Below, piece by piece: positions 6,162 through 35,405 of a stretch of 50,940 nucleotides of DNA. The translations under genes and the position numbers were made by a program. The notes under the pieces were generated by a model. The model was not told the DNA's origin. It made no database searches and saw only the letters and a list, made by a program, of their open reading frames with translations. Origin of the DNA: a bacterium (GTDB taxonomy: Bacteria > Patescibacteriota > Minisyncoccia > Phycocordibacterales > Phycocordibacteraceae); the NCBI GenBank assembly GCA_023269085.1, contig JAHFML010000001.1:256356-307295 (forward strand). The letters are read 5' to 3'. Each line of letters begins with the position of its first letter. The first letter of the stretch is position 1.

Positions 6162-8324
6162 ATGACAACCAGAAAACACGGGAGAAATCTGTTCCTCTCT
6201 TCACTTCTCGTTCTTGCGGGCATCGGCTTCATCGCACTCGGCGGCATCATCATCGCGGTCGCCGTCTCACCGGTCCCTGATATAAGCTCCTTCGCGTCAC
6301 GCCAAGTTGATCAATCAACGAAGATCTACGACCGAACCGGCCAAGTGCTCCTCTATGACTACAACCGCGACGCGAAGCGTGATGTTGTTGCCCTTGGTGA
6401 CATGTCGCCGAATATCATCCAGGCCTCTATCGCTATCGAAGATTCAAGTTTCTATGAACATGGCGGTATTCGGTTTACATCGATTATTCGTGCGATGATG
6501 GTCGACGCACTCGGTGGTGCGATCGCACAAGGCGGGTCGACAATCACCCAGCAGGTAGTGAAGAATACGCTCCTCACGAACGAGAAGAGTATTACGCGCA
6601 AAATCCATGAGTGGATGCTTGCAATCAAGCTTGAACAGATTTATTCGAAAGATCAGATTCTCGAAACATATCTGAACAATATCCCCTACGGCGGCACGCT
6701 CTATGGCGTCGAGGCGGCATCTGAGGCGTACTTCGGCGTCTCGGCGAAGGATCTCACGCTCCCCGAAGCGGCCTATCTCGCAGCGATGACACAAGCTCCT
6801 TCTTATTACTCACCGAACGGTACGCACCGCGCCTTACTTGATGCTCGGAAGAATCTCGTGCTCGAACGCATGCACACGCTCGGCTTTATCAAGGACGATG
6901 TATACGCCGCGGCAAAAGCTGAAAAGGTTCTTTTTGCTCCTGCAAGTCGGAATGCGATCATCGCGCCTCATTTCGTCTTTTACATTCTCGATCAATTGAA
7001 GACTTTCTACGGCCCACAAGCGCTCACCACCGGGCTCAAGGTGACTACCACGCTCGACGCGGATCTCCAGGTCCACGCCGAATCAACGCTCAATACTTAC
7101 GCGAAAGAGAATCAGAAGAATTTCAACGCATCGAATGACGCCCTCGTCGCTATCGACCCCCCGACGGGGCAAATCCTCGCCATGGTCGGCTCGCGAGATT
7201 TCTTCGACACGACTATTGATGGGCAATACAACGCTTCCCTCTCGCTCCGCCAACCAGGATCGACGATGAAGCCGTTTATCTATTCTCTCGCGCTCTCGCG
7301 CGGCTACACGCGCGATACGGTCGTCTTCGACGTTCCGACTCAATTCTCTACCTCTTGTCGTCCGCAAGAGGTTACGAATAGCACCCCTCCCTGTTATGCA
7401 CCCGGCAACTTCGACGGCACCTTCCGCGGACCGATGACTTTTGAAACAGCGCTCGCTCAATCAATCAATATTCCAGCTATCAAGACGCTCTATCTCGTCG
7501 GCGTGCAGAATGCCGTCGCCTTTGCAAAATCATTCGGACTCTCTTCGCTCGGCGATGCTTCGCAGTATGGTCTCACTATCGTGCTCGGCGGCGGCGAAGT
7601 GCGTCTGCTTGATCTCACGAACGCGTATGCCACCTTCGCGAATGACGGCGTCAAGAATGCGGCGACCGGTATCCTCGAGGTTGCCGATGCTCAAGGGAAC
7701 GTTCTTGCGCATTACACATCTGATCAATCCAGCGTCGTGCCGATGAATATCGCCCGAGACATGTCCGCAATGCTCTCTGACGCGCCCGCTCGCGTGCCTG
7801 AATATGATTTGAATTCTCCACTCTCTTTTGCTAATTATGATGTCGCCGTCAAGACTGGTACAACCGATGATACGCGCGACGCGTGGGTTGTCGGATACAG
7901 CCCTTCGATCGCTATCGGCGTCTGGGCCGGCAATAACGACAACTCACCGATGGTGAAGTCTATCGCCGGCTTCATCGCCGCGCCGATGTGGCATGAGGTC
8001 ATGGCCTATGCGCTCTCGAAATATCCGAAGACCTACTTCGGCGAACCGAATCAAATCTCAGCAACCATTCCTCCTATCCTGCAAGGCAACTGGCGAGTGC
8101 CCGATAGCCAAGGCGCTATTCTCCCACACTCTCTTCTCTATTGGACGGATAAAAATAATCCTCAAGGCTCCACTCCCCCCACGGCGATTCAAGACTCGCA
8201 ATATGCCTATTGGGAGTACGGAATTTCGGCATACTACAGCGCTCATCCAGAACTCTTCACGAATCCCCCGCTCATGGTCCCTCTCACTTTCACTGCAATG
8301 GTTTCGACAACAACGGTGCAATAA
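6162..8324 (+). CDS. class A penicillin-binding protein (PBP1A family; glycosyltransferase plus transpeptidase)
   Basis: N-terminal TM helix; GT51 motifs IAIEDSSFYEHGGI and GGSTITQQVVKN; transpeptidase STMK, and KTGTT. 720 aa. Confidence 0.9.
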   Translation: MTTRKHGRNLFLSSLLVLAGIGFIALGGIIIAVAVSPVPDISSFASRQVDQSTKIYDRTGQVLLYDYNRDAKRDVVALGDMSPNIIQASIAIEDSSFYEHGGIRFTSIIRAMMVDALGGAIAQGGSTITQQVVKNTLLTNEKSITRKIHEWMLAIKLEQIYSKDQILETYLNNIPYGGTLYGVEAASEAYFGVSAKDLTLPEAAYLAAMTQAPSYYSPNGTHRALLDARKNLVLERMHTLGFIKDDVYAAAKAEKVLFAPASRNAIIAPHFVFYILDQLKTFYGPQALTTGLKVTTTLDADLQVHAESTLNTYAKENQKNFNASNDALVAIDPPTGQILAMVGSRDFFDTTIDGQYNASLSLRQPGSTMKPFIYSLALSRGYTRDTVVFDVPTQFSTSCRPQEVTNSTPPCYAPGNFDGTFRGPMTFETALAQSINIPAIKTLYLVGVQNAVAFAKSFGLSSLGDASQYGLTIVLGGGEVRLLDLTNAYATFANDGVKNAATGILEVADAQGNVLAHYTSDQSSVVPMNIARDMSAMLSDAPARVPEYDLNSPLSFANYDVAVKTGTTDDTRDAWVVGYSPSIAIGVWAGNNDNSPMVKSIAGFIAAPMWHEVMAYALSKYPKTYFGEPNQISATIPPILQGNWRVPDSQGAILPHSLLYWTDKNNPQGSTPPTAIQDSQYAYWEYGISAYYSAHPELFTNPPLMVPLTFTAMVSTTTVQ

Positions 8325-9539: not shown

Positions 9540-10889
9540 TCATACAAGAAGCGTGCGGATATCTTGAATATCTTTTGCTAACTCGCTATCCCCAAGTACT
9601 TCACGCTTTATCTTCTCACAAGAGTGGATAACCGTCGTGTGGTCGCGACCGCCGAGTTTCGTGCCGATGGTCGGGTACGAGATATTGAAGTCTTCACGCA
9701 GGAGGTACATGATGATTTGCCGTGGCCGGACCACCTCTCTGCGACGCGTCTTCTCATAGATACTGTCTTCGTCGATGCCGTAGAATTCTGCGACCTTATC
9801 GACTATATTCTTCACCGACACATTCTTCTGCGGCCGCGTGAAGGATCTGAGCGAATTGCGTACCTCGGCGATATCCGGCGTACCGCCCTTCGCTTGCGTG
9901 TGGCAGACGATATTATTCACCATCCCTTCAATCTCGCGTATCGAGCCTGAAAGCGTCGTGGCTATATACTCGACGACCTCATTAGTGAGCATTATGCCAT
10001 GCAGAGCAGCCTTCTTCCGCACGATAGCCATGCGTGATTCTATGTCTGGTTCGCCAATGTCGATCGACATACCGCTCGCGAGCCGGCTCTTCAAGCGGTC
10101 GAAGATATCAGGGATAGCGATCGGCGGCCTATCCGACGAGAAGATAATCTGCTTGTTCGTATCATGAAGCGTATTGAAGAGGTGGAAGAGTTCCTCCTGC
10201 GTCTTATCTTTCTTCGAAAGGAACTGAATATCGTCCATGATAAGCAGATCATATTGCCGATATTTATCCTTGAAGCGATTTGCGGTACCGGCTTGAAGCG
10301 AATCGGTAAAATCTACAGTGAATTTTTCTGAGGTGAGATAGAAGACTTTCCGTCCTGGGTACTGCTTCTTGAATTGGTTCCCGATAGCTTGAATAAGATG
10401 GGTCTTCCCTCTCCCTGTCTCCCCATAGATGAAGAGCGGATTGTAGGTGATGCCGGGCCGCTCGAGCGCCGCTTGCGCGGCCGCATAGGCGAGATTATTG
10501 AAAGAGCCGATGACGAAGGTGTCGAAGGTATAGCGCGGGTTCAGATTATCGCTCTTGTTGATATAGAAATCTTCAAGCGGGAGCTCGAGCGCGCCGCGCG
10601 TATTCTTGTTCTCGCGCGGCGGCTTTCGATGGTCATCCTTCACGATGACATACTCGATATTGCGGAATTCATACGAGACTTCCCGTACTATCTTTAAGAG
10701 AAGCGTGTTGAACTTCTTGATATACCAATCTTTGAAGAATTGGCTTGGAACGGCGAGATAGACGACCCCGTCGTCTATCTTGGTTATGAAGCTGTTACGG
10801 AACCAGGTGTTGAAATTTGCGGGAGATATGGAGAGCTCGACTTGCGTGAGGATATGTTCCCAAAGCTCTTTCAAGTTTCCTTTATCCAT
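9540..10889 (-). CDS. dnaA: chromosomal replication initiator DnaA
   Basis: LWEHILTQVELSISPANFNTWF, Walker A GETGRGKTHL, Walker B LLIMDDIQF, C-terminal domain IV ..GGRDHTTVIHSCEKI. 449 aa. Confidence 0.95.
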   Translation of the reverse strand: MDKGNLKELWEHILTQVELSISPANFNTWFRNSFITKIDDGVVYLAVPSQFFKDWYIKKFNTLLLKIVREVSYEFRNIEYVIVKDDHRKPPRENKNTRGALELPLEDFYINKSDNLNPRYTFDTFVIGSFNNLAYAAAQAALERPGITYNPLFIYGETGRGKTHLIQAIGNQFKKQYPGRKVFYLTSEKFTVDFTDSLQAGTANRFKDKYRQYDLLIMDDIQFLSKKDKTQEELFHLFNTLHDTNKQIIFSSDRPPIAIPDIFDRLKSRLASGMSIDIGEPDIESRMAIVRKKAALHGIMLTNEVVEYIATTLSGSIREIEGMVNNIVCHTQAKGGTPDIAEVRNSLRSFTRPQKNVSVKNIVDKVAEFYGIDEDSIYEKTRRREVVRPRQIIMYLLREDFNISYPTIGTKLGGRDHTTVIHSCEKIKREVLGDSELAKDIQDIRTLLV

Positions 10890-11454: not shown

Positions 11455-12163
11455 TCCGATCTATAACGCGCTCGTCGCGCTCGTCGCGCTCGTGCCGGGC
11501 TCTGACGTGGGTATCGCCGTCATCCTCATCACGCTCGTGATACGGCTCATCCTGCTCCCCTTCTCCCTCTCGGCGGCGCGCACCCAGCGCGCGATGAAGC
11601 TCCTCGAGCCGAAGATTAAAGATTTGAAGGAGAAACATAAAGACAACAAAGAACGTGAAGCGATAGAGACGCTCGAACTCTACAAAGCGGCAGAAGTGAA
11701 TCCCTTCGCGAGTATTCTTGTCGCTTTCATCCAGATCCCAGTCCTCCTCGCGCTCTATTGGGTCTTCATCTATGAACCTTTTTCAGCCATCAATACCGCG
11801 CGGCTCTATACCTTCACACCCGTACCGCACGCCGTGTCGCTCCTCTTCCTCGGCGTCATCTCAGTCGCGAGCAAGAGTATGGTGCTCGCCGTCATCGCGG
11901 GTATAACGCAATACATTCAGGCGCATATGGCGCTCAAGGGCACCATGAACCCGTCAAACGGCGGCCCCGGAGGCAGCTTCCAGCAGGTTATCGGTATGCA
12001 GCTCAAATATGTCTTCCCTTTTCTTATTGCTGTTATCTCCTATACCACCTCGGCGGCCATCGCGCTCTACTTCATCACGACCAACCTTGCCGGTGCCGCC
12101 CAAGAGTGGCATGTCCGCCGCGTCATCGCGCGCGAGACGCACGAGTTGGAGCAGATGGCATAA
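11420..12163 (+). CDS. yidC: YidC/Oxa1-family membrane protein insertase (short form)
   Basis: GIAVILITLVIRLILLPFSLSAARTQRAMKLLEPKIKDLKEKHKDNKER.. and five hydrophobic segments. Overlaps rnpA by 35 nt. Confidence 0.9.
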   Translation: MISTFFHAVFYNPIYNALVALVALVPGSDVGIAVILITLVIRLILLPFSLSAARTQRAMKLLEPKIKDLKEKHKDNKEREAIETLELYKAAEVNPFASILVAFIQIPVLLALYWVFIYEPFSAINTARLYTFTPVPHAVSLLFLGVISVASKSMVLAVIAGITQYIQAHMALKGTMNPSNGGPGGSFQQVIGMQLKYVFPFLIAVISYTTSAAIALYFITTNLAGAAQEWHVRRVIARETHELEQMA

Positions 12164-12304: not shown

Positions 12305-12604
12305 CTATCCAAAACACCAGTCCCGAAAAACATAAGCATTTGAAAAGCGCCCCTTGAGTTCGGGAGTTACGCCGAAGATAAGGGACCAAAGCGCGAGCGA
12401 GCGCTTGTCCCAGCGCCCCGGGAGCGGCTTCTCGACTACCGTGGCGATGGTCGATGCGTCATAGGTAGCGAAGAGCCAATCAGTCGCTGCTCTCGTACCG
12501 TGGTTGAGGACATTGGTGATGATGAGCGTCGCGTCACGATCGCGATCAAGCGATTCTGGATCGTATGACCAGAGGCAGGCGCGGACAAGAGGAGGCATAT
12601 TCAT
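12305..12604 (-). CDS. conserved hypothetical protein (99 aa)
   Basis: CLWSYDPESLDRDRDATLIITNVLNHGTRAATDWLFATY.. resembles a small domain family that I recall but cannot name with certainty. Has its own TGGTATAAT promoter. Confidence 0.55.
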   Translation of the reverse strand: MNMPPLVRACLWSYDPESLDRDRDATLIITNVLNHGTRAATDWLFATYDASTIATVVEKPLPGRWDKRSLALWSLIFGVTPELKGRFSNAYVFRDWCFG

Positions 12605-12610
12605 ACCTCG

Positions 12611-12619
12611 ATTATACCA
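12611..12619 (-). promoter_or_regulatory. consensus extended -10 TGGTATAAT, 6 nt before ATG 12604
   Basis: Plus strand reads attatacca. Confidence 0.55.
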
Positions 12620-12623
12620 TAAT

Positions 12624-13862
12624 TTAGAGCGAGTAGGCCCAGAGGGAGCGGTCGTTCTTGTTCACGAAGACGAGGGTGGTGCCGTTCGGGTCGACGGCGA
12701 GCGCGGTCGCGTCGAGGGCGCCTTTATTCGCTTGAGAGAAGTCGAGCACCATCTCGGCATAGCGGCTCGCGACATTCACCTTCCAGATCCTATCCGAGAA
12801 TGAGACGGCGCCTTGGTACCAGTCGTCAGGATACGCGAAGCTCGTGGGAGGGCTCATCGGCACGCCACAGTAGACGGCGGAGCTGTCGGCGGCCCAGACG
12901 CATTTGTCGGTGATGGTCCCTATCGGGAGCGCCGTGACCTCGCCGGTCGCGGCGTTCACGAGCTCGGTGCGGAGCGTGCTCGTGTTCGAGGTGTAGCTCA
13001 CGAGCACCCACGCTCCCGAGGGGCTCCCGAGGGCTGTGAGGCCGCTCAGCGGGCCCGCAATGCTCGAGAAGCGACCGAGACTATTCACCACATAGGCATT
13101 GCCTAGAAGCGTCGCTGAGGGCTTCGAGAAGGCGAGGTACTGATTCTTCCCCAAGAATGAGACGCGCACGGCGTTTAGCGGTGTGGTGAAGGCAGGGGTC
13201 GCCTTGGTGCCGTCAACATGGATCAATGAAACGGTAGAACGAAGACCGCTCGAGACCACGGTGAGGATCTGGGTCGGCGAGACGGCGATACCAGAGAGAT
13301 TCTGGGTGAGGAAGAAGCCCGCAGAGCTCGAGGAGGCGAGGGCGTAGGTGTTCACGGTCGAGAAGTCAGCGCCCGAGAGATACTGGACGAGCGCGCTTGA
13401 GCCGTCGGGGAGCCAGAGCGCCGACTGGAGGCCGGGGATCGTCTTGTTGTTGATGCGGGTGAGCACTTTGTCGGTCGCCGAATAGGAGAAGACATTGCCG
13501 CTCTCTCGTTCGAGATATTGGACCGAGACTTTTGAGGGGGTCGTCGTTGCGCCCTTCACCTTCACGACCTTGCTATCGAGGACGATCTCGCCCGGGACGA
13601 CCGGCCCCGCGCTTATCTGCACCAAACGGTTCGTTATGACGGTGGGGACGCCGGGCGTGGCGGTTGCTGCCGAGCCTGACCCGCCATTTTTTCCACCTCC
13701 GGTGCCAGAAGCACCCGTCTGCCCCGCTATGGGGAATTGTGAAGAGGGCGTGCCGCTCTGCCCCGTCGGCGACTTTGGGTTCAAGAAGAACATGATATAG
13801 ACCCCCGCCGCGATGGCGAGGATCACGAGGGCGACAGTGGCGATGATGAGTGTTCGGCGCAT
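12624..13862 (-). CDS. membrane-anchored extracellular protein, repeat-rich/beta-rich (last gene of the T4SS-like operon)
   Basis: Start MRRTLIIATVALVILAIAAGVYIMFF (TM anchor) lies 9 nt after the upstream stop, followed by a Gly/Ser/Thr-rich linker and about 330 aa rich in beta-strand-type residues. No catalytic motif seen. Confidence 0.65.
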   Translation of the reverse strand: MRRTLIIATVALVILAIAAGVYIMFFLNPKSPTGQSGTPSSQFPIAGQTGASGTGGGKNGGSGSAATATPGVPTVITNRLVQISAGPVVPGEIVLDSKVVKVKGATTTPSKVSVQYLERESGNVFSYSATDKVLTRINNKTIPGLQSALWLPDGSSALVQYLSGADFSTVNTYALASSSSAGFFLTQNLSGIAVSPTQILTVVSSGLRSTVSLIHVDGTKATPAFTTPLNAVRVSFLGKNQYLAFSKPSATLLGNAYVVNSLGRFSSIAGPLSGLTALGSPSGAWVLVSYTSNTSTLRTELVNAATGEVTALPIGTITDKCVWAADSSAVYCGVPMSPPTSFAYPDDWYQGAVSFSDRIWKVNVASRYAEMVLDFSQANKGALDATALAVDPNGTTLVFVNKNDRSLWAYSL

Positions 13863-13870
13863 AGGTATTG

Positions 13871-14494
13871 TTATTGTTGTTGGGGGCATTCCCCGTTTAC
13901 TGCACCTCCGTCCTTCTTGGCAGTACTCGTACAAGCGGCCGCACTGGTAAAGCATATCCATTTAGTATCCTTTGGAGCACCAGTTACCGCATCCGTGCCA
14001 GCCGAGTGCAAGTAACAGAACTGTCCAGAAGGAAGTTTTGGCGTTTGTGTAGGATTTGCGGCGCTTGGAGCGTATGCAGTGCCGGTTTCTACTGGGGCAG
14101 CGGGTGTAAATGTATTGAGCTTCGGGAGATTGAGCGAGAGGTTGAGGATACTTGGGTTGATGATAGAGAAGACGAGATAGGGCGAGAGGACGAGGACAAG
14201 GCCGAAGAGCGCCTCTTGGATACGCTCCTTGCCGGCGCCCTTCGCGCTTATCGAGTCTTGTGTCGCATACTCGAACCCGCCCCAGATGATCATGATGATA
14301 GCGGCTATGGCCGCGAAGCCGATGAGGTAGAGGTAGAGATTGTTGAAGAAGTCAGCAAGCGAAGTCGAATTGATAACACTCCTGCCATTGTCACTAGTGA
14401 GGCCGGGGATCGGCGCGAGCGGGGTGAAGCCTTCAGCGAGCGCGCGCGGCGCCGCGATGAGGCTCACGAGTGCGCCGAAGAAGAGATTTTTCAT
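13871..14494 (-). CDS. VirB2/TrbC-like T4SS pilin-type protein with Cys-rich C-terminal extension
   Basis: Signal peptide MKNLFFGALVSLIAAPRALA, then two hydrophobic helices (LYLYLIGFAAIAAIIMIIWGG; ALFGLVLVLSPYLVFSII). Start overlaps the upstream stop (ATGA). Confidence 0.6.
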   Translation of the reverse strand: MKNLFFGALVSLIAAPRALAEGFTPLAPIPGLTSDNGRSVINSTSLADFFNNLYLYLIGFAAIAAIIMIIWGGFEYATQDSISAKGAGKERIQEALFGLVLVLSPYLVFSIINPSILNLSLNLPKLNTFTPAAPVETGTAYAPSAANPTQTPKLPSGQFCYLHSAGTDAVTGAPKDTKWICFTSAAACTSTAKKDGGAVNGECPQQQ

Positions 14495-15522
14495 AGGCCG
14501 AAGAGGTTACTGCTCGGCTTCGCGCCGAAGGTTATCGAGAGGTCGGCTGAGTCCTCGGTCGTGTCGCCCGCCGCGGCGTTGACCGAGAGCGCGGCGCTCC
14601 CCTGCCCGGTGCCGACCGGGCGGAGCGTTATCGAGTTGCCGGCCTGTGCCGTGACACCATCCAGAGTCCACTGGATTTTTGGCATCTTGCCGAGAATCGG
14701 GAAGGAGTAGGGTGCGGCGAAGAGACTCGACTCTCTTGACCCGACGGTATATGAAGTCGAGAGTGCATGATCAAAGAGGATGCCGAGGAGCGGGTCTTGC
14801 TCGTAGACGCGCACGACAGGGTCAGTTGGCTCTATGCTGAGCGAGCCGCCGCCGACCAAATAGCCGTTCTGATCTTGGACGGAGACAGAGACCGCGCGCG
14901 CGCGATACTGGAGCGGCGAGGCGACAAGGATACTGCTCTTGCCGATACCCGAGCTGTTCGCGATCTGGGTATTGTCGACGGTCCACGCGTAAGAGAGTGT
15001 CGATGGATCAAGTGTTCTCCCGCCGGCGTCTTTGAAATTTGCCACAGCGACGACGCGGGTGTTCCCCTCAAGCGGGATAAGCGGCTTGCCGAGATACAAG
15101 GGTGGCGCTGACGCGACCGGCTCGGCGATGAGCGAGACATCCTGCGGTTGGATCACGACAGACTTCTTATAGACCGATCCTGCCGAGGAGATCGTTAAGG
15201 TGACATTCGTAACGCTACCGCCCTTCCCGAGCTGGACAAACATCGGTACGACACTGCCTTTGTAAATCTGTTTGCCGTTTTGCGTAGCGGTAAGCGTCGC
15301 GTTATTGAGGTCGAGCGAGGCAGAGAGCAGGGAGATAGAAACTTGGCTCCCCGGCGTCGGATATTGCGGGTCGACGCTAATAGTGAATGGATCAGACGCG
15401 GCGATAGAAGCGTCGAGCGACGAGACGTCAATCGTCGGGATCGCAGGGAGACCTGTTTGAGCAGATGTCAGCGATGGGAACAGCAAAACAAGAGAGAGAG
15501 CGGTGGCGAAATAGAAGCGCAT
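14491..15522 (-). CDS. secreted protein of unknown function (343 aa)
   Basis: Start MRFYFATALSLVLLFPSLTSAQ is a signal peptide. The mature part is Ser/Thr/Val-rich and Ig-like in composition. Translationally coupled to the pilin gene. Confidence 0.65.
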   Translation of the reverse strand: MRFYFATALSLVLLFPSLTSAQTGLPAIPTIDVSSLDASIAASDPFTISVDPQYPTPGSQVSISLLSASLDLNNATLTATQNGKQIYKGSVVPMFVQLGKGGSVTNVTLTISSAGSVYKKSVVIQPQDVSLIAEPVASAPPLYLGKPLIPLEGNTRVVAVANFKDAGGRTLDPSTLSYAWTVDNTQIANSSGIGKSSILVASPLQYRARAVSVSVQDQNGYLVGGGSLSIEPTDPVVRVYEQDPLLGILFDHALSTSYTVGSRESSLFAAPYSFPILGKMPKIQWTLDGVTAQAGNSITLRPVGTGQGSAALSVNAAAGDTTEDSADLSITFGAKPSSNLFGL

Positions 15523-15550
15523 AGTGCCAGTATACAATGCTGGCGGCACA

Positions 15551-16210
15551 TCAAGCGACCATACGCACATGGTCGGGGATTTCTTCACGAATCTCCTCAT
15601 CTTCGTTAGAGGCATCATTCGCCGCTTCATTTGCCGCCTCTTCCTTCATGCGAGCTTGGGAGAGCTGTGCGGCTTGTGCTTGACGTTCGCGAAGTTGTTC
15701 GGCGGCATGAGCTTTCTTCCAAGCCACGAGCGCCACGTGCTCTTTTTTTATTTGTGCTCGATAGAGCCGCCATAAGCTGAGTGAGAAGGTCGGGATGGTC
15801 CCGATGAAGGGGACCTCAGCCAGCATGAAGCCGCCAATGAACCAGAGCTTGCTCGTGGCGCTCGTCTTGAAGAGCCGCGGATTCGTGGTGAGTATCAGCA
15901 TACCGAGCGCGAGGAAGCCGATAAGGCCGAAGGCGATTGACATGACCGTTCCGAATGCGGCAAGCGGCGCGAGCGCAATCGAACCAACGACGGCCGCAGC
16001 ACCGACACAGGCGGCCTGAAGAGCCACGCCGATGAACCAGATATTCCCGACCTTCGACGCGCAGTAGGCAGCGAGGAGCGCCGGCCCGAAGAACCAGAAC
16101 AGCTCGAAGAACATGCGGAGAGCGTCGAAGACGATGGCGAGCGCGAGAATCGGCGTAGCCTTTCCCCACGTCATCGCCTTCGGCGGCTTGCTAGGATTGA
16201 CGCGAGGCAT
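15551..16210 (-). CDS. polytopic membrane protein with charged C-terminal coil (possible VirB6-like channel component)
   Basis: Four to five hydrophobic segments, then KKEHVALVAWKKAHAAEQLRERQAQAAQLSQARMKEEAANEAANDA. Overlaps the virB4 end by 20 nt. The VirB6 analogy rests on position only. Confidence 0.6.
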   Translation of the reverse strand: MPRVNPSKPPKAMTWGKATPILALAIVFDALRMFFELFWFFGPALLAAYCASKVGNIWFIGVALQAACVGAAAVVGSIALAPLAAFGTVMSIAFGLIGFLALGMLILTTNPRLFKTSATSKLWFIGGFMLAEVPFIGTIPTFSLSLWRLYRAQIKKEHVALVAWKKAHAAEQLRERQAQAAQLSQARMKEEAANEAANDASNEDEEIREEIPDHVRMVA

Positions 16211-18017
16211 AGCGGCTCTTCTCCTGCTTTATCGCGAGGAGTTGGGAGGGATCGGAGGTAATAATCTGGTCTTCGGTATAGCTCGCGACGATCTTTATCG
16301 CGACGTGCTTCATGCCCGCGAAGAAGAGCCCCTCCCCCACTCCGGCCTCAAGCAGAAGATATTTTTCTTCGTCGGTGAGGCTGAAGGTTTGTTGGAGGAC
16401 GTCAATAGTCGTCGGCGACTGTTTGAGGAGCATCTGGAGCGATGAGTTCGTGAGGATAGGTCGACCATAAGGGCTCTTCAAGAAGTCTTCGACGTCTTGG
16501 GTAATGGTGCAGACGCCGAGATAATATTTGCGGCCGCGCTTTGCGAGGCTGTAGAGGAAGGAGGCGGTGTCCTCGCTCTTCATCATCCACCACGCCTCGT
16601 CGATGATGAGGAGGCGCTTCTTCATCTCGTGGCGCACGGCGTTCCAGATATAGTGCGTGATGACGTACATAGCGATCGGCTTCAGCTCGTCCTCCATGTC
16701 GCGCACCGAGAAGACCGCGAACTGCTGCTTCAAGTCGATGTTGGTCGGCTGATTCATGAAGCCGGCGTAGGTGCCGCGGGTGAACTTCGAGAGACGCTCG
16801 ATAAGCGACTCGCTCCCCTCCATGCCCGAGAGCACCTGCTCGAAGTCGGAGAGCAAGGGCGGCTCCATGCCAGTGAAGTCGACGTTGCCCGTAATGTCCT
16901 TCAAGGCGTAGGTCTCGCTGATAGCGCGGTCGACGATAGCATCCTCCTCAGGCGAGAGGCCGGAGAGCATGATACGGAAGAGGCCCACGAGCGCGATAAT
17001 GTTGCTGCGCAGGATGTCCTTCGGGTCCTCCCCTTCCTTGACCGGCGGGAGGTCGAAGGCGTTGATGTGGTTGTCCGAGGAGAGCGAGATGTTGAAGGAT
17101 CGGCCGCCCGTCGCCTCGGCGAGTTGCTCATATTCGCGCTCAGGGTCGATGACGATGACGTCGGTGCCGAACATGAGGGAGCGGAGAATCTCAAGCTTGG
17201 TGGCGTAGCTCTTACCCGAGCCGGACTTGGCGAAGACGACCGAATTGTAGTTCTCAAGGGAGAAGCGGTCGAAGAGGATAAGCGACGCGTTGTGGCGGTT
17301 GATGCCGTAGAGGATGCCACGGTCGCTCGTGAGGTCGAAGGAGACGAACGGGAATATCGAGGACAAGGGCGATGAGTTGAGCTTCGAATTGACGAGGAGC
17401 TCGTCGGTGCCGATAGGCAGGCACGAGCGGAAACCCTGCTCCTGCTGGAAGAGGGCGGGCTTGGTGTAGACCAACTTCGCATCGAGGACTCCGCGGATAT
17501 CGCCCTCGGTCTTGGCTATATCCTCTTTCGTGTCGCCGTAGAGCGCAAGGTAGAGTCCGACATCGAAGAGCTTCTCTTGAGCCTGTTGGAGATTGTCGCG
17601 CAGGCTCTCAAGGTCCTGGTAGGCCGTGTCGAGGAGCGGGTCGCGGACGAGACCCTTCGCTTCCCTCTCGTTGATCTGGCTCTGGACCTCAGCGACCTTC
17701 TTCTGGAAGGCGTGGAGCGCCTGTTCGGTATCGACCGGATGGATGAAGATGGAGACATCGAGCACCTTGTCGAGATTGATGACCGGCGAGAACCAGCTGT
17801 CGGAGAGGAACCGCGGGTAGGAGATGGTATAAAACGTGCGTACGAACTTCTCGCCAAGCTCGAGCTCTCTTGAGCCGATCTTGAGCGCGGTCGGTGCTAT
17901 CGTGTCGACCAAATCGAGCGTGCTCTGAGCGTAAATATCCTTCGGTAGGACCGGCATGATCGACGGCGCCGTGTCGGCGGGGGTATTCTTGCGGTTGAGG
18001 AAATCAAGAAGGGACAT
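16191..18017 (-). CDS. virB4: VirB4/TrbE-family T4SS ATPase
   Basis: Walker A VFAKSGSGKSYATK, Walker B LLIIDEAWWMM, ..RKYYLGVCTITQDVEDF. 608 aa, with an N-terminal membrane-proximal domain typical of VirB4. Confidence 0.85.
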   Translation of the reverse strand: MSLLDFLNRKNTPADTAPSIMPVLPKDIYAQSTLDLVDTIAPTALKIGSRELELGEKFVRTFYTISYPRFLSDSWFSPVINLDKVLDVSIFIHPVDTEQALHAFQKKVAEVQSQINEREAKGLVRDPLLDTAYQDLESLRDNLQQAQEKLFDVGLYLALYGDTKEDIAKTEGDIRGVLDAKLVYTKPALFQQEQGFRSCLPIGTDELLVNSKLNSSPLSSIFPFVSFDLTSDRGILYGINRHNASLILFDRFSLENYNSVVFAKSGSGKSYATKLEILRSLMFGTDVIVIDPEREYEQLAEATGGRSFNISLSSDNHINAFDLPPVKEGEDPKDILRSNIIALVGLFRIMLSGLSPEEDAIVDRAISETYALKDITGNVDFTGMEPPLLSDFEQVLSGMEGSESLIERLSKFTRGTYAGFMNQPTNIDLKQQFAVFSVRDMEDELKPIAMYVITHYIWNAVRHEMKKRLLIIDEAWWMMKSEDTASFLYSLAKRGRKYYLGVCTITQDVEDFLKSPYGRPILTNSSLQMLLKQSPTTIDVLQQTFSLTDEEKYLLLEAGVGEGLFFAGMKHVAIKIVASYTEDQIITSDPSQLLAIKQEKSRYASRQS

Positions 18018-18022
18018 AGTAT

Positions 18023-18658
18023 TTATGAATCAAGACGGATCGGGTTTTCAAGCTCGCCCGGGTTGAAGGAACGGTAGAGAAGCTCGATAACCTCTTCGGT
18101 GCCGAGTGGCGTCGCGCGCACGCCCATGTTCGCGAGGCCGGCCATGACGAGCGAGAAGCGCTGTTCGAGCTGGGCGCGGTCCTCTTCGAAAGCGAGGTCG
18201 CCGGACACATCCTTCTTCTTCGTGTCAGCGTGCTGTAAGAAGCCGGTTGCGCTCGCAGTCGTGAGGTGTGGGGCATAGGAGACGACGACATAGAATGACT
18301 TGGTCATGATGTTCGTCTGGTCGGCAAAGGTGTTGATGAATTCGATGTACTCGCGGAGCTGGATGCGCATGAGCTCGGTCTTCTGATCGACCATCTTCTC
18401 TTCAAGAATGCTCAGATACGGGCGCAGGTCCATGCGCCGCGAATTGATGACGATCTGTATCGAGAAGTCGAGTGTGTTGAGGAAGTTCTGGAAGCCGAGC
18501 GTGATAGCCTCCTGTTCATCGCGCGATTTGAGGCCGAAGTTGACTGCCGAACAGATAAGGACGCCGCGGTAGCCGCCCTGCTTGAGCACCATGATGCCAT
18601 TCCGAATCTCTTTGATCGGGACGAACGCTTGCGTCTTTCCGGCGTGCGAAGTATCCAT
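18023..18658 (-). CDS. protein resembling the VirB4 N-terminal domain, without the ATPase domain
   Basis: FVPIKEIRNGIMVLKQGGYRGVLICSAVNFGLKSRDEQEAI..FSIQIVINSRR..SFYVVVSY parallels the order of elements at the N-terminus of the adjacent VirB4. ATG 18658 lies 1 nt after the prgI-like stop. Confidence 0.6.
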   Translation of the reverse strand: MDTSHAGKTQAFVPIKEIRNGIMVLKQGGYRGVLICSAVNFGLKSRDEQEAITLGFQNFLNTLDFSIQIVINSRRMDLRPYLSILEEKMVDQKTELMRIQLREYIEFINTFADQTNIMTKSFYVVVSYAPHLTTASATGFLQHADTKKKDVSGDLAFEEDRAQLEQRFSLVMAGLANMGVRATPLGTEEVIELLYRSFNPGELENPIRLDS

Positions 18659-18659
18659 G

Positions 18660-19088
18660 TTATATCGGGCGGCGGGCGGTGATCGAGGCGCCTGGTCGGA
18701 CATCGAGCGACCATGCGAGCTCAGAGAGCTTCCCGCGCGTAAGCCGCGCGTTCCGTATCGGAGTCGGGGTTACATCGGGCTGGACGGGCGTTTCGTTCTT
18801 CACGACGGGCGCGGCCTGCTTCCAGATCAGCAGTTTAGCTCCGGCGGTGTAGTTGAATGCCGCCTCGAGTATCTCGATGAACGGCTTGCCGTTCACCCTG
18901 TAGAACGCGAGAGCGGCGCCGAGCCCGGCGACGGGGAGTGAGAAGAGGAGCGCGAAGAAGAAGCTGAAGTAGGAGAAGAAGATGACGCAGAGCCCGCCCG
19001 CGCCAGCGATATAGATGAATTGGCGCAGGGTCAAGGGCCCGATGATCTTGTCTTCGACCTCAATAAATTGCGGAACCTGGTACTCCAT
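18660..19088 (-). CDS. PrgI-family (VirB3-like) membrane protein
   Basis: MEYQVPQFIEVEDKIIGPLTLRQFIYIAGAGGLCVIFF.. is the characteristic PrgI-family N-terminus, followed by two TM helices. Confidence 0.75.
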   Translation of the reverse strand: MEYQVPQFIEVEDKIIGPLTLRQFIYIAGAGGLCVIFFSYFSFFFALLFSLPVAGLGAALAFYRVNGKPFIEILEAAFNYTAGAKLLIWKQAAPVVKNETPVQPDVTPTPIRNARLTRGKLSELAWSLDVRPGASITARRPI

Positions 19089-19095
19089 TCCTTCT

Positions 19096-19104
19096 AGTAT
19101 ATCA
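19096..19104 (-). promoter_or_regulatory. TGATATACT extended -10-like motif, 7 nt before ATG 19088 (T4SS-like operon promoter)
   Basis: Plus strand reads agtatatca. Lies inside the 3' end of the M50 protease gene. Confidence 0.45.
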
Positions 19105-22230: not shown

Positions 22231-23574
22231 TTACAGCTGGCAGTTGTCCCACAAGCAGACGTTTTTCATACCAGTTGCCGCTTCGAGCGGATCGGCGCCG
22301 TATTCGCCCTTCCAACCATACGGATCGACCACTTTGTAATCGTTGATTGAAGTACCAGACGAGCCAGACACACGTTTCAAGACTTCGAAGTGGAGGTGAG
22401 GACTTCCTTGTACGCCCGTGTCACCGCTCAAGCCAATCACCGCACCTTTCATCACTGTGTCACCTGAATACACAGAACGTGTATTGAGATGAAGGTACTG
22501 CGTTATATAACCATTTCCATGGTCAATACCCACAGCACCAAACGCATCGCAACTAGAAAGACCTTTAGGTATGCATCGCTGTCCGGCGAAGTTGACCACC
22601 GTTCCCGTGGCAGCTGCTTTCACTGGTGTGCTGTAGTAAGCTCGGTAATCGTATCCCGGGTGAGCTTCGTAATTCAAAGCAACACCAGCAACACAATTAC
22701 TTGATCCACTACCGACAGTGCCACTGTAAAGACTAGTGAGTAGCGTTGACCACGTCGCGTTGCCTTTCTTCGAATAACACGCTTGTGGTGCCGTGCTTGG
22801 GTAAGCTGACGTTGCGTCAAACTCCTCTCCGGTAAAAGCGACGATCACACCATCTTTGCCGCTGTATACCGCGTTCATGTGATAGTCCACAACGCTGACA
22901 AGTCCTTGCGGCGTGTACGCACCATATGTATACGCAATATTTCCCGTACCAGAACAGTTGGGCGTGCTACATTCAAGCGGAAAGCCCAGATTCGCCCCGT
23001 TGTAGGTGACCACAAGCATCGGCCGGTAGAACGGGATGCTGTAGTCAGAACTCCGGAATACGTTGAACTGGTTGTTGGTACCAGCAGGCAAGAATACGAA
23101 CCCGTCATTTACATAGGTACCATTCTTCCATCCGTTGTAGATGCTGGTGATGTTGAGGCCATACCACGAATTGGGCGTTGGTGCAGGCACCGTGCCCAGG
23201 CTGTACCCTTGCAACTGGGTATAGTAGTCCTGACTCGTCTCACTCCACGGAGTCGTGAGCAGGTAGAGCGGCATAGCCACCGGTGTAGAAGAATCGCCGC
23301 GCGGGTATGCATACAGCCACATCACTGCTGAGGTGGCTGTCTGAGGGAGACCAGAGAGGTCAAATTGTATGAACATACGGTGCTGATCGCCCCAACCGCC
23401 GACTTGGAGCTTACTGTCATCAACGGATGTCCTGTTGTAGCTCGACGAGAGCCACATATCTTTCCCTGGTGACGAGCCGGGTTGAAACAGCACCTGATCA
23501 GCAAATACACCAGTCGTCATCGCCAAGCAGCACAACAGCAACAACATTTGCAGTACCTTGAACAAGTTTCTCAC
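22231..23574 (-). CDS. secreted M23-family metallopeptidase with N-terminal DNRLRE-like domain
   Basis: Signal peptide ..LLLLCCLAMTTGVFA. N-terminal ..KLQVGGWGDQHRMFIQFDLSGLPQTATSAVMWLYAY..TTPWSE. M23 motifs HPGYDY and GSPHLHFEV. GTG start with AAGGAGA 6 nt upstream. Confidence 0.8.
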   Translation of the reverse strand: MRNLFKVLQMLLLLCCLAMTTGVFADQVLFQPGSSPGKDMWLSSSYNRTSVDDSKLQVGGWGDQHRMFIQFDLSGLPQTATSAVMWLYAYPRGDSSTPVAMPLYLLTTPWSETSQDYYTQLQGYSLGTVPAPTPNSWYGLNITSIYNGWKNGTYVNDGFVFLPAGTNNQFNVFRSSDYSIPFYRPMLVVTYNGANLGFPLECSTPNCSGTGNIAYTYGAYTPQGLVSVVDYHMNAVYSGKDGVIVAFTGEEFDATSAYPSTAPQACYSKKGNATWSTLLTSLYSGTVGSGSSNCVAGVALNYEAHPGYDYRAYYSTPVKAAATGTVVNFAGQRCIPKGLSSCDAFGAVGIDHGNGYITQYLHLNTRSVYSGDTVMKGAVIGLSGDTGVQGSPHLHFEVLKRVSGSSGTSINDYKVVDPYGWKGEYGADPLEAATGMKNVCLWDNCQL

Positions 23575-23633: not shown

Positions 23634-25259
23634 TTAGGAGGACTGCGGTGATGCAACCATCATGTTCTTTTTCGCGAATCTCAACTGGAGCGTGGTCGAG
23701 AAGCGTTTTGATGCGGCGATGACGATGAGTGCCGCATAAGCGAGAAGGACGAGCCAGAAAGGAAAGGCAGGAAGAGTAAAAGCCGCGAACGGAAGCGTCG
23801 CGGCTTTTTGTGCGAGGATGAGCAGATATTCGTTCGTGAGGTATGCCGGTAAAGCGAGCAGGATGCCGAGCGCGTGGACGCTTGCGGTGAGCGCCGTCGA
23901 ACCGAAGAGCATGCCCGCGAATCCGGCGAGAGCCGAGAGCGCCATCGTGAGTGGGACCATCGGCGTCGCGAGCATATTCGCGGGAATAGCGACAAGGGAG
24001 AGATTGCCGGTGTCATAGAGGAGGAGCGGGAGCACCGCGACTTGTGCGGCGAGCGTCGTCGCGATGACGTCGCGCCAGAAACCAACGCGAGCTTCAACAG
24101 GTGCCTTTTTTGAGAGCGTTCCGTCCCGCCTTAGGCGGGACTGCACTTGGCAAATAACTCTCAAAAAAGGCGACCTGCGTAGCTCGCTCAATAAACGTTC
24201 GATAATCGGCGCGAGCCAGATAAGGCCGGCGGTCGCGGCGACCGAGAGGCCGAAGCCCGGGTCATAGGCGAGATAGAGCGGGTTCCCCGCAAGCATGACG
24301 AAGACGACCGCGAGGAGCGCGCGACCGGCGACATACGCGCGGCCCGTCGCGCGCGCATAGAGGGCGATGAAGGCCATGAGCATCGCGCGCAGGGCGGTGG
24401 CCGCGAAGCCCGCGATGCCGACGAAGAGCAGTATCGCAAGCGCGCCCGCCGCGCCGCGCCACTTGCGCGAGAGTCGGGTGAGCGCGAGCGCGGCCATCAC
24501 CCACTCGGCGACAACCATGATGTTGTAGCCCGAGAGGACGATGATTTGCACGAGGCCGCTCCGCGTGAATGCGGCTTGGAGGTCGCTCCCGAGGCCCGAC
24601 TTCCCGCCGATGACGACGCCGCCCGCGAGTGAGGCAACGGGCTCGGGCAACACATTTGCGAGGCCGTTCAAGAATGCGTGCTTCACCTGCGCGAGCGCGG
24701 CCGGGAGCGAGTACCACGGTGCGGGGCTCGTCACACGCATGAAAGCGAAGTTGAGCATGAAGCGCACGCCGTCACGCTGAAGATATTTGTCGTAGCGAAA
24801 GACGCGTCCATTGTCGTCCGCAAAAGGCTCGGGGAGTGCGAGGGTGCCGGAGATGCGCACCGCGTCGCCGACCGCGACGACAGTCGTGCGCGGTGCGACG
24901 ACGAGAAGAATCGTTGACTCCCCTCCTCGCGCGACGCGGACCATGACGCGCTGACTCGCATCGCGCAGATCCGGGTCGGCGACCACGATGCCGTCATAGG
25001 CAACGCGATGCTTCACGTCGCTCGCGAATGCGCTCGGCGGCGGCGTGTCGGCAACGAGCGCACGCACCATGCCGAGGGCGATGAACAAAAAGAAAACCGC
25101 GCCGCTCGTGTACACAAGGCGCGGCGCTCGCACTCTTGCGCCGACACAAAGTCCGGTGAGCAAAAGGGTGAACAAAATAACGGGCCACCCGAAACTAAAA
25201 ACCGACCGTAAAAGTATCCCGCCCGCGAATCCGCCAGAGAGCGCGATGAGCCACGACAT
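23634..25259 (-). CDS. comEC: ComEC/Rec2-family DNA internalisation channel (no MBL domain)
   Basis: MSWLIALSGGFAGGILL.., DUF4131-like N-terminus and competence-domain TM bundle (..QIIVLSGYNIMVV.., ..TTLAAQVAVLPLLLY..NMLATPMVP). Start chosen after the rnhA stop. Confidence 0.85.
   Translation of the reverse strand: MSWLIALSGGFAGGILLRSVFSFGWPVILFTLLLTGLCVGARVRAPRLVYTSGAVFFLFIALGMVRALVADTPPPSAFASDVKHRVAYDGIVVADPDLRDASQRVMVRVARGGESTILLVVAPRTTVVAVGDAVRISGTLALPEPFADDNGRVFRYDKYLQRDGVRFMLNFAFMRVTSPAPWYSLPAALAQVKHAFLNGLANVLPEPVASLAGGVVIGGKSGLGSDLQAAFTRSGLVQIIVLSGYNIMVVAEWVMAALALTRLSRKWRGAAGALAILLFVGIAGFAATALRAMLMAFIALYARATGRAYVAGRALLAVVFVMLAGNPLYLAYDPGFGLSVAATAGLIWLAPIIERLLSELRRSPFLRVICQVQSRLRRDGTLSKKAPVEARVGFWRDVIATTLAAQVAVLPLLLYDTGNLSLVAIPANMLATPMVPLTMALSALAGFAGMLFGSTALTASVHALGILLALPAYLTNEYLLILAQKAATLPFAAFTLPAFPFWLVLLAYAALIVIAASKRFSTTLQLRFAKKNMMVASPQSS
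23668..23721 (+). repeat. 54-nt direct repeat, copy 2 (displaced sod 3' end, antisense to the comEC 3' end)
   Basis: In frame it reads FFANLNWSVVEKRFDAAMTMSAA*. On the opposite strand it encodes the comEC residues ..ASKRFSTTLQLRFAKK... Confidence 0.9.
24101..24175. repeat. nested palindromic element inside the comEC ORF (reading frame stays open)
   Basis: ccttttttgagag (24104-24116) / ctctcaaaaaagg (24158-24170), flanked by ggtg/cgacc, with an inner hairpin gtcccgcc tta ggcgggac. Encodes the basic segment RRSPFLRVICQVQSRLRRDGTLSKKAPVE. Confidence 0.7.
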
Positions 25260-25290
25260 AGGGGTATCGTAGCAGAGATTACCGATGAAA

Positions 25291-25710
25291 CTATTTCGCC
25301 CCCCTATCCATCGCTTCGTTCGCAAGGGCGTCGGCGTCGGCGTTCAGCGCGCGCGGGATGTGGGTGAAGGTTGTCGAGGCGAAGCGTGCGGCGAGCGGAG
25401 CGAGCCGCGCGTATTGCGCCTTCATCATGGGGTGCTTCACTTTATATACGCCGTTCGCCTGCTTCACGACGAGCTCGCTGTCCATCTTCACCGCGATAGT
25501 TGTTGCGCTGATTTTATTACCGACGATTTTTGCAACCGTTTCGAGCGCGAGAATCACCGCTTCGTATTCGGCGAAGTTGTTGGTGTTGGTCCCGAGGAAT
25601 TGCGACACGCTCGCGACGGGGCTCCCTGCTTCGTCGCGAATCATCGCGCCCGCTCCCGCGGGCCCCGGGTTCCCTCTCGATCCCCCGTCGGCGTGAATGG
25701 TGAAGTGCAT
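25291..25710 (-). CDS. rnhA: ribonuclease HI
   Basis: MHFTIHADGGSRGNPGPAGAGAMI.., NNFAEYEAVILAL, MDSELVVKQ, ALNADADALAN (DEDD residues in order). Confidence 0.85.
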   Translation of the reverse strand: MHFTIHADGGSRGNPGPAGAGAMIRDEAGSPVASVSQFLGTNTNNFAEYEAVILALETVAKIVGNKISATTIAVKMDSELVVKQANGVYKVKHPMMKAQYARLAPLAARFASTTFTHIPRALNADADALANEAMDRGAK

Positions 25711-31284: not shown

Positions 31285-31892
31285 AATTGGCTTTTCAGGT
31301 TACGGAGCGTCGCGCCGGCCGTGAGGGTGAAGGAGACCGGGGCGCGATTTACGTTGACGTCGACGACCAGCGTCGTCCTGATCGAAGCGATTTGAGAAAT
31401 GTTGACGGGCGTGGAGATGAGCGTGCCGGCCTCGTTGAAATATTGGAAGACAGCCGTGGCCGCACTGTTCACGACCGAAGTCGCGACGGTTGAGGTCGAG
31501 ATCGCTCCGCCAACGTAAGAGGGAGGATTTCCGGCACTTAGCACCACCGTGCGGTAGAGCGTCCCGCGGATGAGACGATAGGTTATGCGTTCTATCGCTG
31601 TGTCAGCGTTGGCATTAGCAAAGAAGGTGAGCGAAGAAGTCGCGGCGGTCATGACAGGATAGGATCCGTCGCTCCCATAAGAAGCTTCGCGCAGGTCGCG
31701 CATCGCGTTCTCGACGCCGCGGCGCGCTTGGGATATCGCAGTCGCCTCCTGGAGCGTGTAAGCGTTCGTCTGGTAGAAGTAGACGATAAGCTTACCGAGC
31801 GTGAGAAGTACGAGCGTGCTCACGGCGACGGTTACGATCGCCTCGACAAGGGTAAAGCCGGCCCAATGGTGGAGTGAAGAGCGCGAGGTCAT
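31281..31892 (-). CDS. prepilin-type N-terminal cleavage/methylation domain protein (pseudopilin)
   Basis: MTSRSSLHHWAGFTLVEAIVTVAVSTLVLL, a class III signal (G/FTLVE). ATG 31892 overlaps the upstream TGA (ATGA). The track ORF is over-extended. Confidence 0.8.
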   Translation of the reverse strand: MTSRSSLHHWAGFTLVEAIVTVAVSTLVLLTLGKLIVYFYQTNAYTLQEATAISQARRGVENAMRDLREASYGSDGSYPVMTAATSSLTFFANANADTAIERITYRLIRGTLYRTVVLSAGNPPSYVGGAISTSTVATSVVNSAATAVFQYFNEAGTLISTPVNISQIASIRTTLVVDVNVNRAPVSFTLTAGATLRNLKSQL

Positions 31893-34809: not shown

Positions 34810-34817
34810 TCATATAT

Positions 34818-34826
34818 AGAGTAGCA
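34818..34826 (-). promoter_or_regulatory. TGCTACTCT extended -10-like motif, 8 nt before pilC ATG 34809
   Basis: Plus strand reads agagtagca. Confidence 0.4.
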
Positions 34827-34831
34827 TGCAA

Positions 34832-34860
34832 TAAAAAAACTCGAACCGAAGTTCGAGCTT
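34832..34860 (-). terminator. intrinsic terminator after the small membrane-protein gene
   Basis: Minus strand: ctcgaac ttcg gttcgag followed by TTTTTTTat. Confidence 0.65.
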
Positions 34861-34934
34861 TGTGGGGATGACTTGACCGAGGTGCCATCCCAAAACCTCC
34901 TCCGTTATGCGCCACGGGAGCGGGCGTTGGCACG

Positions 34935-35276: not shown

Positions 35277-35363
35277 CGCGTCCTCCCTTCCCTCAACGCA
35301 CTGCCCGGCGTGAGAGTTCAATGGATAAAAGGCGCGGGTACGCCAAACAAAATGCCTAGTACT

Positions 35364-35391
35364 AGTATACACCAAACGATATTCTTGTCAA
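35364..35391 (-). promoter_or_regulatory. sigma70-like promoter TTGACA-N16-TATACT
   Basis: Minus strand reads cTTGACAagaatatcgtttggtgTATACTag, about 88 nt upstream of ATG 35276. Confidence 0.5.
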
Positions 35392-35405
35392 GCCCCTTGC
35401 CTCCC

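Follow-up and report, generated by a model that had tools for sequence, protein, structure and literature searches.

Perhaps a quarter of bacterial diversity belongs to the Patescibacteria, whose means of drawing resources from their hosts are an open question. Few of their machines have been shown to be essential in a member brought into cultivation, and a type IV secretion system (T4SS) encoded near the chromosomal origin is among them. Here we describe a seven-gene cluster that is almost certainly a member of the published Patescibacteria T4SS family; it lies in a 50.9-kb stretch of a Patescibacteriota genome (contig JAHFML010000001.1, positions 256,356 to 307,295), which we call the window and whose first base is position 1 in the coordinates below.

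The family was described phylum-wide in 2025 by Quinonero-Coronel et al., whose main-text passages on these systems report a survey of 3,035 Patescibacteria genomes, 2,417 of them with VirB4, and place the proteins in one clade nested in MPF_FATA (PMC12102498). According to the same passages, TrsD is the most frequent neighbor of VirB4, followed by PrgI/VirB3 and VirB2-like pilins; relaxases and nearby type IV coupling proteins (T4CPs) are almost absent; the Paceibacteria cluster lies close to dnaA, dnaN, and rnpA; and the phylogeny is that of a single vertically inherited clade (PMC12102498). Transposon sequencing by Wang et al. in 2023 found the homologous Southlakia locus, pilins included, to be essential for epibiotic growth (PMC10633639; PMC12857230). 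Reviews call the role of T4SSs in Patescibacteria "completely unknown" (PMC12857230; PMC11665869), and a 2026 preprint on a cultured relative reports uptake of host RNA and tubular structures that may be T4SS pili (bioRxiv 10.64898/2026.06.21.733656).

The window cluster consists of seven co-directional minus-strand open reading frames (ORFs), g1 to g7, which together with a promoter-like element upstream of g1 span 12624-19104 (from the ORF listing and a reading of the sequence across the window). An earlier annotation made from the letters alone, here the sequence-only reading, had described seven packed minus-strand genes, and all seven ORFs are indeed present, with short gaps or overlaps at every junction; its length of 413 aa for the last protein needs correcting to 412 aa. 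The features are as follows.

g1, 18660-19088, minus strand: 142 aa, PrgI/VirB3-like small membrane protein
g2, 18023-18703 (226 aa) or 18023-18658 (211 aa, ATG at 18658), minus strand: TrsD-like, detached VirB4 N-terminal domain
g3, 16191-18017, minus strand: 608 aa, VirB4 ATPase body
g4, 15551-16210, minus strand: 219 aa, small polytopic membrane protein
g5, 14491-15522, minus strand: 343 aa, secreted, signal peptide and three immunoglobulin (Ig)-like domains (model)
g6, 13871-14494, minus strand: 207 aa, VirB2-like T4SS pilin
g7, 12624-13862, minus strand: 412 aa, transmembrane anchor, linker, and 7-bladed beta-propeller (model)
P1, 19096-19104, minus strand: extended -10-like element TGATATACT, 7 nt before the g1 ATG
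P2, 15529-15536, minus strand: extended -10-like element TGTATACT, 6 nt before the g5 ATG

A 1-nt spacer lies between g1 and g2 (a 44-nt overlap if the earlier g2 start is used), and 5 nt lie between g2 and g3; g3 and g4 overlap by 20 nt, g4 and g5 are 28 nt apart, g5 and g6 overlap in ATGA, and 8 nt separate g6 from g7.

Every testable feature that defines the published Patescibacteria T4SS is present in this cluster, and the features that define a conjugative element (relaxase, coupling protein, integrase, and variable insertion site) are lacking as far as the scanned ORFs and the related loci show. As far as the main-text passages of the 2025 survey describe them, the Patescibacteria-clade systems share with the window a VirB4 of MPF_FATA affinity, an adjacent TrsD homologue, PrgI/VirB3, a PF18895/VirB2-like pilin, the lack of a relaxase or T4CP nearby, and a chromosomal site by dnaA, dnaN, and rnpA, and nothing essential differs (PMC12102498). 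The precedents that the sequence-only reading saw in ultra-small episymbionts are therefore stronger than the "similar" clusters it spoke of, the whole family having been described across the phylum (PMC12102498). Those main-text passages make no mention of the three Ig-like domains, the propeller, the Cys-rich pilin tail, the ssrA-like tail of g4, or the two leaderless-type promoters presented below (PMC12102498). What we add is incremental and consists of fold assignments for g5 and g7, the variable head of the pilin, the tail of g4, and the pair of promoters; the window holds nothing categorically new and is of value as a clean, compact example, with seven genes in what appear to be two transcription units.

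"Candidatus Southlakia epibionticum" ML1, a member of the Saccharimonadia, has the same PrgI - TrsD-like - VirB4 order (903, 882, and 1839 nt) in its locus SEML1_0006-0019; this locus likewise has PF18895 pilins, lies where the chromosome starts, and lacks both a relaxase and a coupling protein (PMC10633639). Its own features are two proteins of about 1000 aa (one of them TrbL/VirB6-like), an NTF2-like protein, large lysozyme/peptidase proteins, and six tandem short pilins, whereas the window has a 219-aa polytopic protein, one long Cys-tailed pilin, a three-Ig protein, a beta-propeller protein, and no hydrolase in the cluster. Among conjugative systems, the closest comparator, the Clostridium perfringens plasmid pSXP-169_2 (NZ_CP143494.1; MPF_FATA, CTn2/CD1110 type), shares the placement of PrgI directly upstream of a CD1110-family VirB4. 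The plasmid differs in having MobC, a relaxase, VirD4 (CD1115), an SLT transglycosylase, and an unsplit 783-aa VirB4, and it has no VirB2-like pilin.

The cluster has no VirB7/9/10 core, as is usual among monoderm-type (MPF_FATA-related) systems. The archaeal Ced system, which uses VirB2-like pilins, and Helicobacter ComB are likewise minimal and VirB4 centered, have no relaxase or coupling protein, and move nucleic acid inward. The window cluster is not a member of the Ced system by sequence (CedB, 35.5 bits vs a cutoff of 700; CedD, 23.7 vs 600).

The split VirB4, its conservation, and the chromosomal site

Relatives were sought in one genome per species. At least 572 genomes contain a relative of g3, and the best 80 loci, in which g3 is 71-92% identical to the window protein, were analyzed; 76 of these 80 carry the names of Patescibacteria or the candidate phyla radiation (CPR), such as Kaiserbacteria, Paceibacterota, Parcubacteria, and Minisyncoccia, and four are named only "bacterium" or "uncultured bacterium."

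Profile searches with Pfam and NCBIfam support each of the identities first proposed for the PrgI, VirB4 N-domain, VirB4 ATPase, and pilin genes. The g1 product matches PrgI (PF12666, 41.1 bits vs a gathering score of 27), its N-terminus MEYQVPQFIEVE is nearly invariant among relatives, and 76/80 loci have a homologue directly upstream of g2. The g3 product matches the CD1110-family VirB4 profile NF045971 (372.6 bits vs a cutoff of 325), has intact Walker A (GSGKS) and Walker B (LLIIDE) motifs, and finds its closest solved structure in the C-terminal domain of Thermoanaerobacter VirB4 (PDB 4AG5, 1.2e-40). Matches to g2 are with NF045975, the VirB4 N-terminal region (4e-12), CD1110 (5e-8), and TrsD NF041427 (1e-4).

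When set against the unsplit 783-aa VirB4 of the C. perfringens plasmid, residues 20-211 of g2 align with residues 35-201 (E = 4e-7), and residues 29-568 of g3 align with residues 205-754 (E = 6e-85), with 32% identity over 554 residues of the VirB4 body. Because they are collinear with this unsplit protein, g2 and g3 are, on the alignment evidence, two halves of one ancestral VirB4, and g2 is the "TrsD" homologue of the literature. The two matches fall in different open frames in all 79 loci of a junction survey, and wherever the g2 frame is correctly placed (the g2 match is misplaced in a few rows) the distance from the g2 stop to the g3 ATG is 1-12 nt. Collinearity and the 79 loci thus sharpen the earlier label of "VirB4-N-domain-like" to the TrsD-like half of an anciently split VirB4. 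A frameshifted or pseudogenized VirB4 was considered as well and is ruled out on the same two grounds.

By tblastn of the window proteins against the 80 loci, the order PrgI - VirB4N - VirB4C - (g4) - g5 - pilin - g7 is kept. Beyond g7, yidC and rnpA on the other strand and then dnaA and dnaN follow in essentially every locus with enough flank, synteny with the dnaA side being seen in 58 of the 80 loci and the others being too short; the M50/L28/SOD side is common only to the closest 25 or so. The co-conservation check proposed with the sequence-only reading therefore comes out in its favor, since order and position beside yidC/dnaA are kept in 80 species. Median identities are 81% for VirB4C, 75% for DnaA, 58% for g2, 56% for DnaN, 51% for g1, 44% for the pilin, and about 35% for both g5 and g7, and VirB4C is more conserved than DnaA in 55/56 loci. 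The ATPase is thus shown to be under purifying selection at least equal in strength to that on DnaA. Among plasmids, even the nearest VirB4s share only 28-35% identity with it, and all come from monoderms. To judge from these comparisons, the cluster is a core machine passed on by vertical descent and not a mobile element in decay. Conservation of a VirB4 above DnaA and far above DnaN is unusual for a secretion ATPase.

In the window itself, the cluster is flanked by dnaN-dnaA-rnpA-yidC on one side and an M50 protease on the other, and 1.7 kb separate the end of dnaA (9540-10889) from g7. Cumulative GC skew is lowest at about 9-12 kb, at dnaA, which is consistent with an oriC in the dnaA-rnpA intergenic region; the GC-skew minimum at dnaA would place the start of the cluster within about 2 kb of the probable origin. 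The T4SS genes are on the strand opposite to the positive skew right of this minimum and would be transcribed toward the origin.

A Pfam scan of the 41 larger ORFs of the window, which left out smaller ones such as 42761-43213, 45234-45767, 45900-46688, and 46784-47365, found no relaxase, VirD4/FtsK-type coupling protein, integrase, VirB8-11, or SLT hydrolase; for relaxases and T4CPs this is the result of a general Pfam scan, run without CONJScan-type profiles. There are no repeats suggestive of att sites in the window annotation, and an Rfam scan of the window found tRNAs only. These results bear out the earlier claim that no relaxase, VirD4, or VirB8-11 is nearby, with none among the 41 scanned ORFs, as well as the claim that the housekeeping flanks do not look like those of an integrative and conjugative element, with the same locus found across 80 species and no integrase.

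The pilin, the extracellular proteins, g4, and the promoter-like elements

The g6 product matches the T4SS_pilin family PF18895 just above threshold (28.7 bits vs 26.6) and TrbC with 1.5e-3 in Pfam, and an orthologue from one of the more distant loci (L050) matches PF18895 with 30.6 bits. It consists of a signal peptide, two hydrophobic helices around a basic loop, a Pro/Thr linker, and a C-terminal domain with four Cys residues. Orthologues can be aligned over about the first 120-150 residues alone, that is, the signal peptide, two helices, and basic loop. The tails are hypervariable in both sequence and length, from none to >300 residues (whole proteins, 140-473 aa), and are usually rich in Cys, with up to 19 and with ≤1 Cys in 8/62. 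The pilin with a Cys-rich tail recognized from the letters thus holds up, as a conserved VirB2-like core with a PF18895 match and a hypervariable Cys-rich tail. Sequences fused to the C-terminus of F-pilin appear on the surface of the pilus, and by analogy the tail of g6 would coat the exterior of a pilus.

Neither g5 nor g7 has a family match in Pfam or NCBIfam profile searches. The 554 homologues of g5 are all unnamed, and the 70 sequences of its alignment are all "hypothetical"; a homologue is present in 73/80 loci, and the C-terminal ..NFFGL is conserved. AlphaFold2 models g5 as a signal peptide followed by three tandem Ig-like beta-sandwich domains (mean predicted local distance difference test [pLDDT] score, 79.4). 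In the PDB, Foldseek ranks three-Ig-domain proteins highest, namely, CD22 d1-3, phage Hoc, and SiiE (E about 1e-7); template modeling (TM) scores over the whole chain are low, owing to the loose arrangement of the domains. The three-Ig model rules out g5 as a TcpC/VirB8-like double NTF2 protein.

The AlphaFold2 model of g7 has an N-terminal transmembrane helix, a disordered Gly/Ser/Thr linker (about residues 28-67), and an extracellular 7-bladed beta-propeller (mean pLDDT, 83.6; predicted TM score [pTM], 0.77). Its top Foldseek matches are 7-bladed propellers, oligogalacturonate lyase 3C5M/3PE7 and WD40 proteins (E about 1e-10; TM, 0.5-0.66). C321, C332, and a YPDDW motif are invariant in a 67-sequence alignment, and the g7 homologue, found in 65/80 loci, is always the last gene before yidC. 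In the predicted structures, neither g5 nor g7 has a VirB8-like NTF2 extracellular domain; g7 resembles VirB8/TcpC in its bitopic topology alone. The secreted 343-aa protein and the membrane-anchored beta-rich protein of the sequence-only reading accordingly gain substance from AlphaFold2, as a signal peptide with Ig sandwiches (g5) and a transmembrane helix with a beta-propeller (g7). Its further statement that the three non-ATPase proteins have no recognizable function stands insofar as no family matches them, but folds or features can be assigned to all three: three Ig domains in g5, a propeller in g7, and a distinctive tail in g4.

The last of these proteins, g4, is also without a match in Pfam or NCBIfam profile searches; none of 36 family members has a Pfam match, TrbL/VirB6 and PrgH included, and the family profile has no match in the PDB. 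Of 65 loci examined, 51 have a polytopic ORF with at least two predicted transmembrane segments next after virB4, and the proteins in this position are 113-553 aa long, mostly about 120-290 aa. The family diverges fast (14-45% identity), with FD.L and IPxI..P..T motifs kept (alignment A3). By position only, g4 is a candidate channel subunit, or VirB6 analogue. Identification as VirB6 itself is unsupported by the Pfam searches (g4 and the 36 family members) and the PDB profile search, and only the positional assignment is retained.

The cytoplasmic tail of g4 (window positions 15551-15640 at the C-terminus) is charged and carries an AAND motif. In most relatives the motif reads AAND(E/N)x(Y/F) and is followed 5-15 residues on by a terminal ..AA, e.g., AANDNVRRNLSRAA, in the manner of an ssrA tag (examples from the g4-position ORFs of loci L003-L072). 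Among 6526 ORFs of the window and the 80 loci, a C-terminal [AP]AND...AA pattern occurs in 21, all of them at the g4 position; the window g4 has the AAND and ends in ..VA and hence is outside the 21. From its sequence, the tail could be a ClpXP/FtsH degron encoded in the protein itself or a peptide used for docking. No tmRNA genes, sought for a comparison of the real ssrA tag with the g4 tail, were found in 44 related loci or the window.

Some distant relatives (L050, L052, L053, L058, L060, L070, L079, and L080) have a g5 homologue that starts right after virB4, with no room for g4. In these, some other protein may serve as the channel subunit, or its gene may lie elsewhere. One of them, L050 (positions 2730-7412 and 11812-11825), has co-directional ORFs ahead of prgI that have no Pfam match, one of them of 1560 aa; these upstream genes were considered as T4SS parts and set aside, having no recognizable T4SS domains.

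The sequence-only reading placed the seven genes behind a single promoter-like element. That element, P1 (19096-19104), is real and conserved: a TA[TC]A[AC]T hexamer stands 6-8 nt upstream of the prgI ATG in 59/73 related loci, in 35 of them with TGn, against a background of 11% for the same arrangement among all ATG ORFs of at least 150 aa in the related loci, and it is kept even where the upstream gene differs among relatives. It is not the only one, as a second conserved element, P2, lies at 15529-15536. A P2-type hexamer is found at the same distance before g5 in at least 25 of 49 related loci, compared with 0/46 before g6, 4/33 before g7, and 2/79 before g3. We infer two leaderless or near-leaderless units, with P1 probably serving g1-g4 and P2 g5-g7. 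A generic scan for sigma-70 promoters and terminators gave no more matches than in shuffled sequence and missed the -10-only elements. Metatranscriptome contigs from the same groundwater sample map to g7, g5, g3, and g1/g2 and are weak evidence that the cluster is expressed; they do not resolve start sites.

A third extended -10-like box, TGGTATAAT, lies at about 12616-12624, before a DUF6922 gene described below. At all three places the extended -10-like box (TGnTATACT/TATAAT) stands 6-7 nt before a start that has no Shine-Dalgarno sequence at a usable distance. With this arrangement at about 11% of ATG ORFs of at least 150 aa in the related loci, the pattern suggests that leaderless transcripts are frequent in this lineage.

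Proposed mechanism and competing explanations

We propose that the cluster encodes a Paceibacteria-type, chromosomal, nonconjugative T4SS that forms a pilus and serves host contact and macromolecule transfer, with import favored; as a whole, this proposal seems to us reasonably probable. P1 would drive g1-g4, the motor and channel at the cytoplasmic membrane, in which PrgI and TrsD would dock the VirB4 hexamer and g4 would be the polytopic channel subunit in the place of VirB6. P2 would drive g5-g7, the extracellular parts. As in other T4SSs that form pili, VirB4 would extract the pilin from the membrane and polymerize it to give a hollow tube, with the basic inter-helix loop lining the lumen and the hypervariable, disulfide-rich C-terminal domain outside as a host-recognition surface. 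The g7 propeller and the three-Ig protein g5 could together make up a wall-spanning base or adaptor, replacing the missing VirB8 and VirB1 scaffolds. Such a machine would serve host contact and the transfer of macromolecules between episymbiont and host, not conjugation. That the transfer is an uptake of host material (nucleic acids or nucleotides) over an export of effectors is the least supported step, and we suggest it only tentatively, as a possibility that may well prove wrong.

Several points weigh against this proposal, in which pilus formation is deduced from homology. Generic folds such as those of g5 and g7 do not point to a function, and neither protein resembles NTF2/VirB8; nor is g4 similar in sequence to VirB6/TrbL. 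Beyond the window, the 307-kb contig could encode a T4CP or relaxase. Lastly, the RNA contigs are assembled, of low depth, and possibly affected by DNA carry-over, and one of them spans the M50/g1 junction.

The explanation that survives best besides our own is a T4SS for effector export, which would inject proteins into a host bacterium or archaeon to manipulate or kill it, as in Xanthomonas or Legionella. Authors in the field have speculated along these lines (PMC11665869; PMC10633639), and the main-text passages of the 2025 survey point out that Brucella VirB and Bordetella Ptl function without a T4CP (PMC12102498). We nonetheless find this unlikely here, as there is no coupling protein among the scanned ORFs nearby and, the flanks being housekeeping genes, no conserved effector or immunity candidate adjoins the cluster; moreover, effector-translocating T4SSs are very rare in monoderms (PMC12857230).

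A pilus that serves only adhesion and host recognition, with no substrate channel and with VirB4 just assembling a variable adhesive fiber, would account for the hypervariable, Cys-rich pilin tail and for the Ig-like and propeller proteins, which are typical binding modules, and it would agree with the absence of any substrate-recruiting ATPase. Yet the window already encodes type IV pili for adhesion and motility (PilB twice, PilC), and the extreme conservation of VirB4 and the essentiality of the Southlakia system apart from its type IV pili (PMC12857230; PMC10633639) suggest something more than another adhesin, which makes this explanation rather improbable. No better chance can be given to a bolder version of the T4SS that we favor, in which the cluster would be a distinct minimal sub-type whose Cys-headed single pilin, three-Ig protein, and propeller replace the extended VirB6, VirB8, and VirB1, whose host-penetrating tube imports host RNA or nucleotides, and whose g4 degron (AAND...AA) leaves the conduit open only while the cell is attached.

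Finally, it is very improbable that the cluster is what is left of a degenerated plasmid transfer module or integrated conjugative element, with relaxase, coupling protein, and hydrolase gone: its VirB4 is of the CD1110 (MPF_FATA) conjugation type and the C. perfringens plasmid has the same PrgI-VirB4 core plus MobC, relaxase, VirD4, and SLT hydrolase, but the seven genes are all intact and keep their order and chromosomal site beside dnaA in 80 species, VirB4 is better conserved than DnaA, the window annotation has no integrase or att-like repeats, and the published phylogeny, as given in main-text passages, is one vertically inherited Patescibacteria clade (PMC12102498).

The host-contact T4SS proposed above has parts that can be tested: a variable pilin domain predicted to face the host, two extracellular scaffold candidates with confident fold models, and a channel candidate with a possible degron. 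Such parts could guide structural and genetic work in newly cultured Paceibacteria/Minisyncoccia.

Other genes in the window

The remaining larger genes of the window are ordinary chromosomal ones and include those for RuvB/RuvC, a class A penicillin-binding protein, L28, SOD, ComEC, RecJ, PGK, TIM, PilC, two PilB-type ATPases, NusA, ClpP, RNase Y, a CCA enzyme, and four tRNAs. At the far end of the cluster, between g7 and yidC, lies a gene for a 99-aa DUF6922 protein (12305-12604, minus strand; PF21956, 1.4e-9). With no equivalent in the 80 related loci, it is a genome-specific insertion at the cluster end. On the other side, 3 kb upstream, a gene for a secreted M23 peptidase with a CBM96 domain (22231-23574, minus strand) could encode a wall hydrolase; as a substitute for VirB1 it is ruled out, being syntenic in 0/80 loci.

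Type IV pilus and competence genes, namely, two for PilB-type ATPases and those for PilC, ComEC, and RecJ, are spread over 656-2329 (plus strand) and 23634-25325, 25749-27500, and 29887-37226 (minus strand), and 29887-33595 is a stretch of unannotated ORFs, among them one that has CarboxypepD_reg domains. In 22/80 relatives, ComEC and the T4SS are no more than 10 kb apart. Among housekeeping genes, a PemK/MazF-like toxin gene (4374-4769, minus strand; PF02452, 4.4e-8) and a small ORF upstream of it form a probable toxin-antitoxin pair.

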